Positions 25,940-32,150 are shown, counted from the first letter of the stretch. The stretch: DNA of 64,000 nt from an uncultured Candidatus Saccharibacteria bacterium (GCA_964655705.1 CAZZPP010000003.1:37427-101426), one strand, 5' to 3'. Translations and numbers: made by a program. Notes: generated by a model from the letters alone, not told the origin.

Positions 25940-26392
25940 ATGACTATGATAGAAAAAGAAGAACAAGGAGCACTACTTAATAGGGAAGCAGTAATAGTTA
26001 ACTATGGAGAACTTTTCATCAATCCTTTCTTAGATGATGATACTAATGTAGGAATATGTTTTGAAAAACAGATTGAGGATACTAAATATCAAGATCCTAG
26101 ATTTTTTTTAACAGAGTATGGTGCTGTATCAGTAATATCATATAAAGGTGATTCCATCTGGGATGTTCAACTTAATCCTCTTAGTATTGATAAATACCAA
26201 GAATTAATTACAGAGATTGAGTGTGCTTCATTTGAAAATAAAGACCATCCTATGGCATATGCTACTAAAAGTGCTCTCTTTGATTTTGGACAGTATTTTC
26301 TTGAAATACTTCCATACAAAAACGAAAAAGCATACAAATTACTTAGGTTTCATCTTAACGAGAAATTGAAGGGTCACCATTCTTTACAATAG
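25940..26392 (+). CDS. Hypothetical protein
   Basis: 150 aa ORF with no recognisable motifs. Confidence 0.3.
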   Translation: MTMIEKEEQGALLNREAVIVNYGELFINPFLDDDTNVGICFEKQIEDTKYQDPRFFLTEYGAVSVISYKGDSIWDVQLNPLSIDKYQELITEIECASFENKDHPMAYATKSALFDFGQYFLEILPYKNEKAYKLLRFHLNEKLKGHHSLQ

Positions 26393-26438
26393 GCATTCAT
26401 TTTGAAATAATAAAGGAATAACTTCTAACATTAGAAAT

Positions 26439-26903
26439 ATGGAACCATCTTCTAAAACTGACTGGTTAATAAATCCAGAGCAATATGAAACAGTAACTAC
26501 ACCACAATAGATAATTGATAAATACGGAAAGCAGTTTGAAGTTCAACATATCGATAATGATAATCCTAACAAACCACCAATAGCATATGAATCATCCCCT
26601 ATAGGAATAGATCCAGAGAAAGAGAAAGAACGATTTGTACTTACCACTGAAAGAGTATATACATTAACAAGTGACTCTTCTAATGTATGGAGATTAGCTT
26701 TCTCAGACCCTAAAGTAATTGATGTTGTACATAGAGCAATTATTGTTTCAAAGGTTAGATATACAATGTTGGACAAACCGATTACTTCTCCCGTTGAAAT
26801 ACCAGAGTATGGATTAAAACTTAATCTTAACTATATGCCCCCTCCTGTAGAAAATTCTAGATATATAATGGAGACGTTAGATAGAAGGAAAGCATATTAT
26901 TAG
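26439..26903 (+). pseudogene. ORF of about 154 codons interrupted by a single in-frame TAG, a putative pseudogene
   Basis: The ATG at 26439 gives MEPSSKTDWLINPEQYETVTTPQ. A TAG follows at 26508-26510. The same frame then continues open for 131 codons (IIDKYGKQFEVQHIDNDNPNKPPIAYESSPIGIDPEKEKERFVLTTERVYTLTSDSS...) to a TAG at 26901. There is no ATG/GTG/TTG start downstream of the internal stop until very late. Confidence 0.4.
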
Positions 26904-26940
26904 TTGCAAGAACAAGAGTTAGGGATATATAATATCTTAT

Positions 26941-27015
26941 TCCGCGATAGCTCAATGGTAGAGCGAACGGCTGTTAACCGTTTGGTTCCAGGTTCGAGTC
27001 CTGGTCGCGGAGCCA
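26941..27015 (+). tRNA. tRNA-Asn, anticodon GTT, with encoded CCA
   Basis: TCCGCGA TA GCTC AATGGTA GAGC G AACGG CTGTTAA CCGTT TGGTT CCAGG TTCGAGT CCTGG TCGCGGA G CCA. Confidence 0.9.
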
Positions 27016-27336
27016 ATCATGACTATCCTGTGATTTAAGTATTACATCAAAGGGCTTTATCAAGTCATAGCTTAGCTTTTTCTCATCTAGTGTAAGGTTC
27101 TGAAGTGTAAGATTGATAATTTGTCTCTTTTGTTCCATTTCAGAACTTTCAAACAACTCCCCTGCTCTTTGGGCTAAAGATAGTATTGATTCTGCAAGGA
27201 TATAATACTCTTCATCTGCTTTGCTAAGTTGCTCAATCTTTCTTTGGATTTTCTTTACCTCTCCTTGGTAGCTGTTCTTCCTTTCTGTATATTCACTATC
27301 AGTAATACTCCACTCCCCTTTTTCATATACTACCCC
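27016..27336 (-). pseudogene. C-terminal remnant of a large serine recombinase, with no N-terminus or start codon
   Basis: The minus-strand frame is open from 27336. It translates to ...EWSITDSEYTERKNSYQGEVKKIQRKIEQLSKADEEYYILAESILSLAQRAGELFESSEMEQKRQIINLTLQNLTLDEKKLSYDLIKPFDVILK. This resembles the coiled-coil tail of large serine recombinases. It is bounded upstream by a TAG. It abuts the 3' end of tRNA-Asn. Confidence 0.45.
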
Positions 27337-27910
27337 CTATATCCAATATATTAAATAAACAAATATACTATTTAATATAAATAACAATATTAAAATATAT
27401 ACCCTCTTCATAATTAAATCATACCTCTCTCTCTTCTTTTTAATATATAAATACAGTAATAAAGGAGTATGTAAAACCATATACATACCCAATCCATAAA
27501 GAGAATAACCAAAAAATGAAGGAGAATACTCAATAAAATCATAAAACCCCTCTAAAAAAGAAGAAGAAACACCAACCCCATACCCTAATTTAATAGAAAC
27601 ATACCCAAAAAAAGATATAACTAACAACTTCAAGGAACTCTCTAACTTACTAAAATCCTTTTTAAAAAGATAATACATAACATAACAAAAAGACTCTAAA
27701 CAAACTCCAGCCAATAACGGGATTATATATCGCTCTAACAAAGTAATTAGTAATATCATATTTACATCAACATAAATTTACAAACCCACATATTACTCAT
27801 TTAACTATTTAGATAGTACAATATATTTCATAATAATAATATCCTGTTCAAACATATTTAATACCATATTACTAAAATATATACATATATAATTTTTTAA
27901 ATATGTATAT
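27337..27910. other. Very AT-rich tract, a likely remnant of foreign DNA
   Basis: The tract is composition-skewed and low-complexity. It holds only a hydrophobic 140 aa ORF (27337-27759, minus strand) of doubtful reality. It lies between the recombinase remnant and the next gene. Confidence 0.4.
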
Positions 27911-28435
27911 ATGAAAAATATACTCATTGGGATATTAGTAGGAGTAATACTCCTAACCCTTTCCCCTGTATTTAAAAGTAGTGCAGAGGGATTAAGTAAA
28001 CCCTCAGGAACATCACTTAAAGCAACCCTGTACCTGTATGGGCAAAACAATGAATTTGGGAAAATGATATACAACAGAGCAGGTCAGTACTTTGAATATG
28101 TCCTCAATGCTCACAACCTCTTACCAAATACAAAATACAACCTCATATACTACCCTGAAAAACCCATAGGATTAATATGTATTGGAGAAGGAGTAAGTAA
28201 TGATGGAGGACAATTAAACATTAAAGAAGATCAAATACATATTACCTCCATACCCTTCAATTCAGACATTAATGCCCACACTCAAACTACTACATATGAA
28301 GATGGCACCACAGGTGGAAAGATATGGTTACTACCATCTAATCAAGTAAATTGTAATCAGATGATATTCACTACCCAAAATCTTACAAACACTCTGTATG
28401 AAGACACTCTCATATTCTTTTGGAAATGGTACTAA
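27911..28435 (+). CDS. Secreted hypothetical protein
   Basis: 174 aa with a signal peptide (ILIGILVGVILLTLSPVFKSSA) and a beta-rich body. Confidence 0.4.
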   Translation: MKNILIGILVGVILLTLSPVFKSSAEGLSKPSGTSLKATLYLYGQNNEFGKMIYNRAGQYFEYVLNAHNLLPNTKYNLIYYPEKPIGLICIGEGVSNDGGQLNIKEDQIHITSIPFNSDINAHTQTTTYEDGTTGGKIWLLPSNQVNCNQMIFTTQNLTNTLYEDTLIFFWKWY

Positions 28436-28483
28436 ACAATATGAATGTATTTACATCTCTAAATATATCTACTAATATCTACT

Positions 28484-28759
28484 ATGCAAGTAACATACTA
28501 TACAGGAGCAATAATACAATTAGTTCTAGATCTCCTCTTAATACTAGCAATACTAGTAACCCTCTATCTTGTAATATCTTTAATACTTAAGGTAAGGAAG
28601 GGTAAGAAGGTAGACAAGATGAAAAGTATTAAGAGAATAATAATGTATACATTGATAATTGAGGTATTACTACTCTCTGTGAATCTCTTCTTTAAATATG
28701 ACCCCTTTGATATAGTACAGGAAAGTCCTGGAAGAACCTACATATTTGAAAATGAATAA
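28484..28759 (+). CDS. Small membrane hypothetical protein
   Basis: 91 aa with two predicted TM helices. Confidence 0.3.
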   Translation: MQVTYYTGAIIQLVLDLLLILAILVTLYLVISLILKVRKGKKVDKMKSIKRIIMYTLIIEVLLLSVNLFFKYDPFDIVQESPGRTYIFENE

Positions 28760-28777
28760 CTATCTTAAAACTACCCC

Positions 28778-29653
28778 CTATTTCCCTACTAACCCTAAAA
28801 TATATTTGTATGCAGCAGAAATCTCACTAGATTTACCAGTTAAACCAGGCCTTCTGTTAACCTCCAGCACATAGTTTAACCCTGTATCCTTGTCTGTAAC
28901 AATATCTACACCCGCCCAATTTAATTTTAGAGCCTTAGCTGCTCTAATAGCTAAATCTAAAATATCATTTGAAACATCCTTTACCTTAATAAATTCCTCC
29001 TTTGCACCCAATGACACATTATTTCTAAATCTGTCCTCTACTCTAGTTCTCTTACATACAGAGGATGATTTACCATTAGCTATTACTACTCTAAAATCAA
29101 AATCATTAGGAATATACTCCTGAAAAAGATACCTATTGTACTTCTTGTTCTCTCTAATAGTCTGTTTAATATCCTCTTCTCTATCTATTAAAAAAACATT
29201 TGAACCTAGGGAACCAAACAATGTTTTGTATATACAAGGTAATTTACAAATCTTTTCAATATCTAAGACATTCCCACTATCAATCTTTAACCCATTATGA
29301 AAAAAAGTGTTTGGAACAGGAATACCCTTAGAAGCTAGTGAAAACATATCTGATAGTTTAGTACTCTGTTTAGAAGTCCTGTTATGTGGGATATTTTGAG
29401 ATTTAAGATACAGATGTAAAAGATATGCTAACTGTGTTGTCTTCCATCCAGACTGTATCCATACATGATCATACCTTTTTAAATCCTTTCCTTTAATCTC
29501 AACTTCAATTACTCCATCAATTATGGTAAAGATAATATCTTTGATAGATGCAAAATCTAGTGTGATATTCTTCAATCCTAACTTCTTTTGTATTAAACCC
29601 CTATCTTCAACAGAGATATTTATACCTACTGCCAAAACAGAACTCTTACTCAT
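28778..29653 (-). CDS. ATP-grasp ligase, RimK / alpha-L-glutamate ligase-like
   Basis: YLFQEYIP...DFRVVIANGK ... ALKLNWAGVDIV.DKDTGLNYVLEVNRRPGL is the ATP-grasp C-terminal signature. Confidence 0.6.
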   Translation of the reverse strand: MSKSSVLAVGINISVEDRGLIQKKLGLKNITLDFASIKDIIFTIIDGVIEVEIKGKDLKRYDHVWIQSGWKTTQLAYLLHLYLKSQNIPHNRTSKQSTKLSDMFSLASKGIPVPNTFFHNGLKIDSGNVLDIEKICKLPCIYKTLFGSLGSNVFLIDREEDIKQTIRENKKYNRYLFQEYIPNDFDFRVVIANGKSSSVCKRTRVEDRFRNNVSLGAKEEFIKVKDVSNDILDLAIRAAKALKLNWAGVDIVTDKDTGLNYVLEVNRRPGLTGKSSEISAAYKYILGLVGK

Positions 29654-30090
29654 TGTATTTCCTTAATATGCAAATATATTGTCATTATACCATTTCCTTC
29701 GAATTAAACACACAGAGGAGTCTCTCAGTTGCATTCTCTACCCATTTTAATCTACAATATGATATGTTTAATACCATACATACATTTGTATTAGGAAATA
29801 CCTTTTTAAACAGTATCTTTGGTATCTTTTTCTCCCCTGTTGAGAAACAGTTAGACAAATTAAAAGAGACTCTTTCAGAAAGTTCTTACCTAAATATTGA
29901 AGGAATGTTAGACAAAATTGCGGGAATATCTCTAATACTCCTCTCCATATATATTGTTTACTCTCTACTTACATTCCTCTCTTCATTCATCTTTAGAAAA
30001 AGACTTAGAGTAAAGATATTGATATCTACAGTTCTTGCAATACCTTTCCTTCTATTAGCATACGCCATATTTGCATATTTACATACTTAG
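29653..30090 (+). CDS. Hypothetical membrane protein
   Basis: 145 aa with a hydrophobic C-terminal half. Confidence 0.3.
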   Translation: MYFLNMQIYCHYTISFELNTQRSLSVAFSTHFNLQYDMFNTIHTFVLGNTFLNSIFGIFFSPVEKQLDKLKETLSESSYLNIEGMLDKIAGISLILLSIYIVYSLLTFLSSFIFRKRLRVKILISTVLAIPFLLLAYAIFAYLHT

Positions 30091-30245
30091 AAATATATAT
30101 GCCAGAAAGATCAAGAGTATACGAAGAGAAGAAAGAATTAAACTCCTTAATACTAGTAGTCGTAATAATGTGTGCAGCCCTACTCTTCTTTTACTTCCTT
30201 TTAAGTTTGTATTAATACATATTGAATAGGTAAAACTTCCCTTTT

Positions 30246-32150
30246 GTGATAGAATATCCACTTGTTATGGAATATATCCCCATTAAAAAGGAAAATATTA
30301 GGAATATCGCTATCATAGCCCATGTAGACCATGGGAAAACAACCCTAGTTGATGCTTTCATGAAACAAACCCATCTCTTTAGAGACAATCAGGAAGAGAT
30401 GACTCAAACAAGAATACTAGATAGTGGAGATTTAGAAAAAGAGAAAGGTATTACCATTAAAGCTAAGAATATATCTGTAAGATACAAAGGATACAAAATA
30501 AATATCATAGATACACCAGGACACTCTGATTTTGGAGGAGAGGTAGAAAGAACCCTTAATATGGCAGACTCTTGCTTACTTTTGGTAGACGCTCAAGAAG
30601 GAGTAATGCCACAAACAAAGTTTGTACTTAAAAAAGCCTTAGAGATGAATCTTAAGGCTCTAGTCTTAGTAAACAAAATAGACAAGAAATTAGCTAATGT
30701 AAAAAAGACAGTAGAGAAAGTACAAGACCTTTTCTTGACATTAGCAACCAATACTGACCAATTAGATTTCCCCATATACTATGCAATTGCAAGAGAAGGG
30801 AAAACATGGAAGGAATTACCCACTGGTAATCTAGACAACGCCCAAGGAGATCTCTCTGCACTACTTGATGAAATTATTGAATATAGTCCACCACCTAAAG
30901 GAGATGAGAATGAGCCATTCCAAATGCAGATTACCACATTAGAGTATGATGCCCATTTAGGTAGGTACTTAGTAGGAAAGATTAATAGAGGAAGTATTAA
31001 AAAGAATAACCCTGTAATACTTCTTGAAAAAGAAAAGAAAGTCCAAGGAAGAGTAAGGGAGGTATTTGTTAAGGAAGGATTAGAATGGGTCTCTGTAGAC
31101 AGTGCTAATGCTGGAGAGATAGTAGCAATAGCTGGGATAGAGTCAACAGCCATAGGGGCAACACTATGCGCTCTAGATAGCCCACAGGCTTTGGAGGATA
31201 TACATATTACTCCCCCAGCAGTACAGGTAAAGTTTGAAGCAAATACTTCACCCTTAGCAGGAAAAGAAGGTAAGTATGTTACTGCTAAACAACTAGAACA
31301 AAGATTAGAACAGGAAAAAGATTTAAATATTAGTTTAAAAATATCTAAAATATCTGGTTCCTCATACTCTGTTGCTGGAAGAGGAGAGTTACAATTAGCA
31401 ATACTAGTAGAACAGTTACGAAGAGAAGGATATGAATTCCAACTAGGTAAACCCGAGGTTGTATTAATTGAAAGAGAGGGTAAACCATTTGAGCCAGTTG
31501 AAGAATTAATTATTGATTGCCCTACACAATACCTTAGTACCATTACTGAAGAGGTTAGTAACAGAAAAGGAGAGATGATCAATATTGAATCAGAAGATCT
31601 ACAAACAAGATTTACATACAGAATACTTACTAGGAATTTAATCGGATTACATAGAGTATTGATGAATGCTACTAAGGGTACTGCCATTGTAAATAACTTT
31701 GTCTCAGATTACATCGAATATATACCTCAGGAACCACTCTTTAGAAAGGGTGTAATAATTTCTCAAGATAGTGGTACTACCTTAGGATTTTCTTTAACTA
31801 CAATACAAGACAGAGGCTCTCTCTTTGTAGGACCATCTGAAACAGTATATGAGGGTATGATTATTGGTATAAATAACCATGAACAGGATTTAGTAGTTAA
31901 TCCTTGTAAAGCTAGACACAAGACCAATGTAAGAATGCTTAGAAGTGAACTTACCTTAGTTAATCTAAAACCTACAATACCACTTACCATTGAGTATGCT
32001 CTCTCCTTCATAAATGATGATGAGTTAATTGAGATTACTCCTAAAAATATTAGACTTAGAAAAAAGTTACTTACTGAAACAGAAAGAACTTGGTCAAAAA
32101 GAAAGAACCTTACTGCATTTGCAAAACAACAATTAGGGATAGAGAATTAA
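30246..32150 (+). CDS. typA: Translational GTPase TypA/BipA
   Basis: IRNIAIIAHVDHGKTTLVD, NIIDTPGHSDFGGEVER and LVNKIDK are present. Length (634 aa) and domain order match BipA rather than LepA. Confidence 0.9.
   Translation: MIEYPLVMEYIPIKKENIRNIAIIAHVDHGKTTLVDAFMKQTHLFRDNQEEMTQTRILDSGDLEKEKGITIKAKNISVRYKGYKINIIDTPGHSDFGGEVERTLNMADSCLLLVDAQEGVMPQTKFVLKKALEMNLKALVLVNKIDKKLANVKKTVEKVQDLFLTLATNTDQLDFPIYYAIAREGKTWKELPTGNLDNAQGDLSALLDEIIEYSPPPKGDENEPFQMQITTLEYDAHLGRYLVGKINRGSIKKNNPVILLEKEKKVQGRVREVFVKEGLEWVSVDSANAGEIVAIAGIESTAIGATLCALDSPQALEDIHITPPAVQVKFEANTSPLAGKEGKYVTAKQLEQRLEQEKDLNISLKISKISGSSYSVAGRGELQLAILVEQLRREGYEFQLGKPEVVLIEREGKPFEPVEELIIDCPTQYLSTITEEVSNRKGEMINIESEDLQTRFTYRILTRNLIGLHRVLMNATKGTAIVNNFVSDYIEYIPQEPLFRKGVIISQDSGTTLGFSLTTIQDRGSLFVGPSETVYEGMIIGINNHEQDLVVNPCKARHKTNVRMLRSELTLVNLKPTIPLTIEYALSFINDDELIEITPKNIRLRKKLLTETERTWSKRKNLTAFAKQQLGIEN

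Follow-up and report, generated by a model that had tools for sequence, protein, structure and literature searches.

A large serine recombinase stump at a tRNA-Asn gene of a Candidatus Saccharibacteria bacterium, and the recurrent breakpoint of its family

In a stretch of 64,000 nucleotides from an uncultured Candidatus Saccharibacteria bacterium (GCA_964655705.1, CAZZPP010000003.1:37427-101426), referred to here as the window, an intact tRNA-Asn gene is abutted at its 3' end by an open reading frame (ORF) that runs on the opposite strand and has no start codon. This arrangement raises the question of what the frame is derived from, where the foreign DNA begins and ends, and how it came to lie there. 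An original prediction, made from the sequence alone, considered positions 26941-30245 as a decayed integrative element composed of a serine recombinase C-terminal remnant, an AT-rich tract and possibly surviving cargo genes. The frame is very probably an inert stump of a large serine recombinase (LSR) gene fused to the intact 3' end of the tRNA-Asn gene, left by the integration of an element followed by a single deletion at a position of the recombinase gene designated here site A.

The stump beside tRNA-Asn and its two edges

The features of the locus, in coordinates of the window, are as follows.

26904-26933, plus strand: promoter-like site TTGCAA-18-TATAAT just 5' of tRNA-Asn (consensus match only).
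26941-27015, plus strand: intact tRNA-Asn(GTT), the integration target and attB side of attL (ARAGORN; Rfam RF00005, 72.3 bits).
26974-27336, minus strand: whole start-less open frame, made of host spacer, then recombinase tail, then 14 codons antisense to the tRNA (translation and ORF list).
27009-27015, no strand: attachment-site overlap, GGAG at 27009-27012 (CTCC on the minus strand) and CCA at 27013-27015 (attP, attB and attL compared).
27013-27306, minus strand: recombinase-derived DNA, codons I387-W484 of a 496/521-amino-acid (aa) LSR (identity to the tails of loci L005 and L006).
27096-27147, no strand: site B, a perfect 9-bp inverted repeat AGTTCTGAA-N33-TTCAGAACC (also written AGTTCTGAA-N33-TTCAGAACT) inside the stump.
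27301-27311, minus strand: deletion junction at site A, host GGAGT (27311-27307) joined to recombinase ATTACT (27306-27301) (contig L166; 56 distinct flanks).
27307-27336, minus strand: host spacer with the left half (GGGGAG stem and TGGAGT loop) of the intrinsic terminator of a 140-aa gene, whose right half went with the deletion (hairpin of L166).

Domain models are blind to the fragment: Pfam and NCBIfam gave no recombinase match on it, and PF07508 and PF13408 in particular were not found, because the modelled domains are encoded 5' of the break (PF07508 and PF13408 correspond to residues 183-327 of the L006 protein). The search with the Recombinase and Zn_ribbon_recom Pfams by which the prediction was to be checked was consequently negative, although the family assignment was correct, and homology therefore had to come via full-length relatives. 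A scan of GTDB, at one genome per species, with an alignment built from the fragment and its homologues gave 70 loci, to which 80 further metagenome loci were added (loci and contigs are designated by L and a number). Over 100 aa, the fragment is 98-99% identical to the tails (residues 386-485) of intact 496-aa ORFs from L005 and L006, the latter being a Candidatus Dojkabacteria metagenome-assembled genome whose intact LSR also runs antisense into tRNA-Asn. The parent ORF of L006 (P0175), with the N-terminus MKAVILARVSTIRQEKEG, carries all three expected domains, namely PF00239 Resolvase (51.3 bits, cutoff 23.3), PF07508 Recombinase (36.4 bits, cutoff 21.1) and PF13408 Zn_ribbon_recom (31.7 bits, cutoff 25.3). 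Besides, its AlphaFold (AF2) model, built on 40 relatives with a pLDDT of 81.9, is matched in Foldseek by the SPbeta integrase 9dxd (E 9e-18), Bxb1 (1.5e-14), PhiC31 (1.4e-13) and 4kis (1.8e-12); the LI integrase structure also matches the model, and TP901-1 matches the parent by sequence. Within this model, the fragment covers the second helix of the coiled-coil hairpin (389-414), three short helices (418-453) and a beta hairpin (454-468). This homology identifies the fragment as the C-terminal coiled-coil and tail of a genuine LSR, and bears out the predicted remnant. The catalytic part of the gene is missing, as had also been proposed, the PF00239 domain being absent from both the fragment and the whole 64-kb window (Pfam, and tblastn with eight full-length relatives). 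In addition, no ATG, GTG or TTG was found in frame upstream of residue ~437; without start codon or catalytic domain, the stump is inert and does nothing as a protein. A free-standing gene family, suggested by a word-indexed protein search that returned short proteins only, was not borne out by the genome scan and a search with the N-terminal part, which both yielded abundant intact genes.

Concerning the right-hand edge, the start-less frame abutting tRNA-Asn is confirmed with a translation identical to the one first given, and it extends further, to 26974. Its last 14 codons (42 nt, ...SHDWLRDQDSNLEPNG; ...WLRDQDSNLEPNG) are the antisense of the tRNA 3' part, with W484-L485 contributed by the attachment site and followed by RDQDSNLEPNG and the stop codon. 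On the left, the frame is closed by a TAG at 27337-27339, above which the 140-aa ORF lies in the same frame; the recombinase-derived DNA begins at 27306 (ATT of I387) and not at 27336, positions 27307-27336 being host DNA. This distinction comes from an independent contig, L166 (Logan SRR8925769), to which the only database match of the 140-aa protein led, and which encodes an identical protein. L166 is colinear with window positions 29644-27307 at 97%, and the match ends exactly at 27307. Past the junction, the window reads ...AAAAAGGGGAGTGGAGT|ATTACTGATAG and L166 reads ...AAAAAGGGGAGTGGAGT|CTCCCCTTTTATC, so that L166 continues as ...GGAGT|CTCCCCTTTT where the window joins ATTACT. At 2357-2372, L166 carries a complete terminator-like hairpin, GGGGAGTGGAGTCTCC(CC)TTTT, i.e. 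GGGGAG-TGGAGT-CTCCCC-TTTT, whereas no terminator was detected at the junction position of the window. After this terminator, L166:2407-5291 encodes a secreted protein of 528 aa and a signal-peptidase-like one of 389 aa, neither of which occurs anywhere in the window, and no recombinase or tRNA. The alignment places the window breakpoint between 27307 and 27306, inside the host terminator hairpin, and assigns to host DNA the AGT that resembles codon S386 in the window. L166 and the window display a strain-level difference at the stump locus.

The way in which such an element enters a tRNA gene can be followed by comparing attachment sites. The attP of L015 and L086 reads ...GATTGGCTCC|CCGTATATGACATATTCCTGAAC, the naive attB of L015 reads ...GGTAAAA|CTCCGCGAG... 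(L040 is alike, both being devoid of an encoded CCA), and the attL of the window, compared together with those of L006 and L007, reads ...GATTGGCTCC|GCGACCAGGACTCGAACC. The only block common to attP, attB and attL is the 4-nt CTCC (GGAG of the acceptor stem), and the encoded CCA is supplied by the element as its TGG codon (W484). The 3' end of the integrase ORF contains attP: in the free element, the protein has 521 aa (L086:4846-6411) and ends with ...WLPVYDIFLNLRIRVEDNIEKLRLLYNIFDVDRGLYIE, in the integrated one it has 496 aa (L006:3289-4779), and integration swaps the last 36 integrase residues for 11 read from the tRNA antisense. This C-terminal swap could act as an integration-dependent switch of integrase properties. 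We infer from these sites that the parent gene catalyses attP x attB recombination with a 2-bp staggered cut. A GAAC motif lies ~6 bp further out in attP than in attB, and such an arm difference fits the known zinc-domain spacing difference of large serine integrases. The direct repeat of the tRNA-Asn 3' end that would mark attR was looked for in the window (GCGGAGCCA, at most one mismatch) and none stood above chance, with 4 hits versus 1.4 expected; besides the tRNA itself, all hits were mismatched and lay at 39 kb or beyond, the overlap of only 4 nt making this a low-power test.

Two loci show another arrangement of these sites: in L015:10001-11083 and L040:9917-11764, a tail that is truncated but has kept its attP intact lies near a tRNA-Asn attB that is naive and CCA-less. 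The two are 0.7-1.4 kb apart and share one orientation, and the tail reached this place without use of attP.

Regarding the age of the insertion, the block formed by the stump and the tRNA is 92-98.6% identical in nucleotides to L005-L008, and the stump alone shares 95-99% of its nucleotides with the ends of the intact genes of L005, L006, L087 and L089. The host flanking genes are only 65-73% identical in nucleotides between the window and L006, L007 and L008. A stump identity so far above that of the host genes argues for a recent horizontal arrival and against an old vertical scar. Describing the element as decayed is therefore misleading, as the stump reflects one clean deletion and not slow erosion. 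The reading of the locus as the scar of an integrative element at tRNA-Asn stands as far as a serine recombinase scar is concerned, and falls for the AT-rich tract as debris and for the surviving cargo.

The related elements are islands of 3-8 kb and not phages, a scan of 2.9 million viral contigs having given one moderate match. In L006 and in the free-form contig L086, the integrase is directly preceded by the genes of a type III restriction-modification system (DNA methylase and ResIII helicase); L045 carries a Fis-type helix-turn-helix (HTH) protein and a BglII-like type II system, and L007, L008 and L015 carry an HTH_3 repressor with an M78 (ImmA/IrrE) peptidase. The loci adjoin tRNA-Asn 49 times, tRNA-Gln 6 times, tRNA-His twice and tRNA-Arg once.

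In the light of the intact relatives, the history of the locus would start with the integration of a small circular element into the 3' end of tRNA-Asn, with crossover in CTCC, by which the tRNA would stay intact and gain an encoded CCA while the integrase would have its C-terminus swapped. A single deletion, both endpoints of which are shown, would then have run from the terminator hairpin of the 140-aa gene to S386|I387, and would have taken with it three domains of the integrase (catalytic, recombinase and zinc-ribbon), attR, the entire cargo and, probably, a piece of host DNA. Finally, the stump would persist as an attL-like flank of the tRNA.

A breakpoint shared across the family

Truncated copies were sorted from native ones by their upstream sequence, which in native copies (~73) continues the recombinase (...MYEDKLDGS|IT...). 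In the truncated copies, the recombinase sequence always resumes at one nucleotide, the first A of ATTACT (I387-T388), whichever of 56 distinct and unrelated left flanks precedes it; the break falls at GGTAGT|ATTACT, between S386 and I387, and ATTACT itself is invariant. The flanks hold information only at positions -5 to -2, with G at -5 in 45/56, at -4 in 44/56 and at -2 in 56/56 (background G 0.19), while -3 is A in 30, C in 12, T in 12 and G in 2, which gives the consensus GG-N-G-N. Position -1 is A in 23, G in 21, T in 9 and C in 3, to be compared with GG-T-A-G-T in native genes, where T occupies -1 in 61/66. The unbroken partner is known from a relative in seven cases, i.e. the window (via L166), L008, L015, L003, L033, L045 and L072, and in 7/7 the base at -1 comes from this partner; in L045, the junction interrupts a spoVG-like gene of which L031 has an unbroken copy. 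To the right of the break, the partners (CTCCCC, CTGTTG, ACAATA, AGGAAG, TTGT, TTACCGG and GTTAAAG) have nothing in common.

These truncations, at least 56 and spread over several phyla, are independent as judged by their flanks. Some left ends fall in the first 60 codons of the integrase itself, as in L003, which corresponds to the L006 element with codons 16-385 deleted, and in L033, where 57 N-terminal codons survive. Others lie in the gap between ImmA and the integrase, at a different point in each of L007, L008 and L015 behind the ImmR/ImmA pair that these loci share, at five distinct points in or beside a conserved 161-aa cargo gene, or in host DNA. Within the clade of the window alone (>=86% identity), at least five independent truncation events are counted. 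Truncations were found in Patescibacteria, Dehalococcoidia, Aminicenantes, Chlamydiae and others with the same flank motif, which is also the same in the Gln- and His-targeting clades. What survives in the truncations is invariably the C-terminal side. A search with residues 1-386 returned 1419 relatives, nearly all of 485-520 aa, with no N-terminal protein ending at S386 among them, and no inverted copy was seen among the truncated loci of the family. With the same endpoint in at least 56 independent truncations, the right-hand endpoint in the window is therefore not random.

Site A is also constrained in intact genes. Across 18 full-length genes (mean 57% aa identity), the four-codon window with the highest synonymous constraint is G385-S386-I387-T388: serine is AGT in 15/15, isoleucine ATT in 18/18 versus 47% gene-wide, and threonine ACT in 17/18 versus 26% gene-wide. 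In the AF2 model, this site encodes the turn at the tip between the two coiled-coil helices. The next constraint peaks, ESSE (439-442) and LQN (454-456), together make up the inverted repeat of site B, which is kept in at least 90% of 50 non-redundant copies, and the last peak is at the att core. Site B may be an internal integrase-binding site or an operator. Its arms are similar to GAACC, a motif found in the T-arm of the tRNA and in the right arm of attP.

Candidate mechanisms and rival readings

The pattern at site A suggests that the window deletion was made by a polar, site-specific cleavage and joining reaction using a partner that ends in GG-N-G-N. Taken together, the fixed endpoint, the consensus restricted to the 5' side, the strict polarity, the constrained cis site and the distribution across phyla exclude random decay, selection on the endpoint, slippage and host Chi sites. 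The same pattern points to a reaction linked to the element, and the best guess for the enzyme would be the integrase itself, acting in an off-pathway reaction. A 2-nt overlap, G-T in the native site and G-N in the partner, would account for the invariant G at -2 and the free base at -1. More broadly, it may tentatively be proposed that a cis site in the ORF of this family is recurrently cut, probably by the integrase, that the cut kills the integrase and freezes the cargo, and that it turns attB into a permanent attL-type site resistant to re-integration, the window being one fossil of this process.

Several points weigh against this proposal. Site A is unlike the natural attP arm and does not co-vary with it (2.67 within loci versus 2.56 across loci, p = 0.26), and the right-hand sides of the partners share nothing, which a canonical two-site serine recombinase reaction with a matched central dinucleotide does not predict. 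In addition, L166 ends after 3 kb, before the ancestral segment between the terminator and site A is spanned, and an intact attR for the clade of the window was not recovered. Literature searches on this integrase family or on the site-A breakpoint found nothing.

Other origins of the motif were considered and rejected. The right arm of site A, in which GAGAG and AAAAAGC had seemed by eye to mimic an attP arm, showed no similarity or covariation in an alignment and permutation test. The GGAG of the left flank is not an inverted tRNA 3' end or remnant of the CTCC core, since there is no conservation beyond -5 and the motif is the same in the Gln and His clades, nor is it a Shine-Dalgarno sequence, its spacing to any start codon being unworkable. 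Replication slippage or microhomology is countered by the base at -1, which is that of the partner in every case and mostly differs from the native T. Finally, an origin of the CRESS (circular Rep-encoding single-stranded) type (TAGTATTAC) would place the break at the wrong bond, and no stem was seen.

Among rival explanations, the one that survives best ascribes the fixed endpoint to something other than the integrase, either a nick at site A by a helper-encoded HUH relaxase or Rep protein with premature termination at GGNGN look-alikes, or a double-strand break at site A whose one-sided resection is halted by a Chi-like, G-rich motif. In its favour are the restriction of the partner consensus to the 5' side of the break, the strict polarity and the presence of TAGTATTAC in native site A, and a nick with premature termination of the rolling-circle or relaxase kind fits this asymmetry better than an integrase reaction does. 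For M13 and pC194, Michel and Ehrlich in 1986 reportedly described deletions anchored at one end to the nick site of rolling-circle replication, with the other end falling on sequences that resemble the one 5' of the nick. Nevertheless, no Rep or relaxase gene is present on the 3-8 kb elements examined, no hairpin surrounds site A (by eye only), and the observed break is TAGT|ATTAC and not TAGTATT|AC. As to a Chi-like motif, the flank motif is constant across Patescibacteria, Dehalococcoidia, Aminicenantes and Chlamydiae, whereas Chi sites vary by taxon. This explanation is therefore regarded as rather unlikely.

A second reading, close to the one initially proposed, holds that a slowly decaying integrative element spans 27016-30245, with the AT-rich tract as eroded DNA and the secreted, membrane and RimK genes as its cargo. 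The genes in question are listed below.

27337-27759, minus strand: gene of a 140-aa hydrophobic membrane protein (hyd140), host, which makes up most of the AT-rich tract; GC 0.25 (syntenic homologue in L008; L166).
27760-27910, no strand: AT-rich divergent intergenic region (151 bp) between the 140-aa and 174-aa genes.
27911-28435, plus strand: 174-aa secreted protein (sec174), host.
28484-28759, plus strand: 91-aa membrane protein (mem91), host; 66% identical in L008.
28778-29653, minus strand: RimK-type ATP-grasp ligase, host (Pfam RimK, E 1e-24).
29653-30090, plus strand: 145-aa membrane protein, host.

It is true that the region from tRNA-Asn to typA varies among relatives, that the stump lies at the edge of this variable region, and that the RimK gene and the 145-aa and 174-aa ORFs have no homologue in L006-L008. 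Against this, typA, the 91-aa gene and the 140-aa homologue (L008:6423-6848, 32% identity, E 1e-15) occur in the same order in L008 and L090 at host-level divergence, and L166 carries RimK, mem91, sec174 and hyd140 colinear at 97%, followed by the complete terminator and then unrelated genes. The supposed low-complexity debris at 27337-27910 turns out to be a host membrane-protein gene and a short intergenic region, with no tandem or low-complexity repeats. The comparison with the rest of the window that had been called for was run as GC and as GC at third codon positions (GC3) and gave no signal of foreign origin, GC matching the window and GC3 being 0.25-0.31 in candidate cargo genes and reference genes alike. 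There is, besides, no attR above chance, and the cargo of related elements differs, consisting of restriction-modification systems and ImmR/ImmA. The secreted protein, the two membrane proteins and the RimK-like ligase do not hold up as surviving cargo; they are located past the 140-aa host gene and its terminator, and the proposed cargo is, by these alignments, host DNA from the far side of the deletion, and a decaying element of this extent is very improbable.

Equally improbable is that the tail of ~100 residues is a functional small protein kept by selection, for example a coiled-coil fragment that poisons incoming integrases. In its favour, homologues only 40-50% identical are still open and share the invariant motifs ADEEYY, LFESSE, LTLQNL and KPFD, the best matches among 1.84 billion representative proteins are mostly short, and a few copies have an in-frame ATG just upstream (e.g. 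the L015 type, MNRRRITDSEY...). However, the window frame is devoid of any start codon before residue ~437, many truncated copies have a stop 0-5 codons upstream, and the left flanks are unrelated DNA without a common translation signal at a workable distance; each truncated copy is, moreover, closest to the intact gene of its own clade, so that conservation is explained by recent derivation.

Finally, a split integrase of the SSV1 kind, with attP at site A and the stump as an Int(C) half residing in the site, whether empty or occupied, is barely tenable: the sharp and recurrent junction and the layout of L045 (tail copy, 3.1 kb of cargo, intact integrase, tRNA-Asn) are what it predicts, but no N-terminal class ending at S386 and no reciprocal Int(N) exist among the 1419 relatives, truncated copies with a native tail usually have no N-terminal part downstream within 5-10 kb (L027, L040, L055, L063, L065), L003 and L033 are simple internal gene deletions, L045 is equally explained by a tandem dimer and the usual deletion, attP and attB in reality cross over in CTCC, at the end of the tRNA, and intact integrase genes occur integrated, beside tRNAs.

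In the L045 locus itself (L045:10001-15011), a truncated tail whose attP is intact precedes 3.1 kb of cargo coding for a Fis HTH protein, a methylase and a BglII-like endonuclease, and then come an intact integrase and tRNA-Asn; its two tail copies form direct repeats of ~300 bp, which fits a tandem dimer that underwent the usual deletion.

Known systems, significance and minor observations

The parent of the stump resembles the large serine integrases of phages and of integrative and conjugative elements (SPbeta, Bxb1, PhiC31, LI/A118, TP901-1) in its Resolvase, Recombinase and zinc-ribbon domains, its long coiled-coil hairpin, and its short att sites with a small identity block. It differs from them in targeting a tRNA 3' end, in having attP inside the ORF and in being borne by tiny restriction-modification or ImmR/ImmA carriers, and the window copy differs further in being devoid of any catalytic or DNA-binding domain. 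As in tRNA-linked islands with a P4-type tyrosine integrase, an integrase pseudogene abuts a tRNA 3' end beside a variable region; unlike P4-type remnants, it is here a serine recombinase with a clean, recent cut at a nucleotide fixed in the family, and no cargo or attR is left in the window. SSV1-type integrases of archaeal viruses share the att site inside the integrase ORF and the fragments beside tRNA genes, whereas here the crossover trims only the last 36 codons, no reciprocal N-terminal product is formed and the enzyme class is different. In mycobacteriophages, Broussard et al. in 2013 reportedly described an attP inside the repressor gene with integration-dependent switching of the C-terminus; the present case is similar in its attP within a coding region and in the differing C-termini of the free and integrated forms, but it is the integrase itself that is altered. 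With the M13/pC194 nick-site deletions, the truncations share one end fixed to the nucleotide, other ends scattered at 5' look-alikes, and strict polarity; unlike them, no HUH enzyme is present on the elements examined and the fixed site lies inside a recombinase ORF.

For the window, this analysis explains a pseudogene stump, maps its edges to the base and returns five neighbouring genes to the host. As a window feature the stump is ordinary; its value is that of a well-resolved case of a recurrent and precise truncation in which both sides of the deletion are known. Random decay is the usual interpretation of integrase remnants next to tRNA genes, whereas here the same nucleotide is found in at least 56 independent cases, at a synonymously protected site. 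If the integrase does cut its own gene, this would represent a simple and general route by which small carriers of defence genes become fixed in streamlined genomes, e.g. those of Patescibacteria, and a new off-pathway chemistry for enzymes widely used in genome engineering. It would also account for many orphan hypothetical proteins of 100-150 aa in metagenome catalogues, and would constitute a previously undescribed way of immobilising islands or immunising target sites.

As regards the neighbouring genes, the RimK-like gene is flanked by two small membrane-protein genes and is without homologue in the closest relatives examined. It reaches 87.7 bits with PF08443 (cutoff 21) and 109 bits with NCBIfam TIGR00768, under the cutoff of 143, and belongs to the superfamily and not to the equivalog. 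In the signal-peptide region of the 174-aa ORF, a 13-nt palindrome, GGAGTAATACTCC, at 27941-27953 shares an 11-mer with the deletion junction (GGAGTATTACT, minus strand), probably by chance. An Rfam scan of 26000-30500 found nothing besides the tRNA.

In L009:10337-10541 (minus strand), a group I intron (RF00028, 65.9 bits) splits tRNA-Asn in the anticodon loop. Just after the recombinase tail, the tRNA is likewise broken at ...TTAC| in nine further loci, L016, L024, L030, L036, L044, L051, L052, L057 and L063. ARAGORN misses these intron-interrupted tRNA-Asn genes, which explain several seemingly tRNA-less loci.

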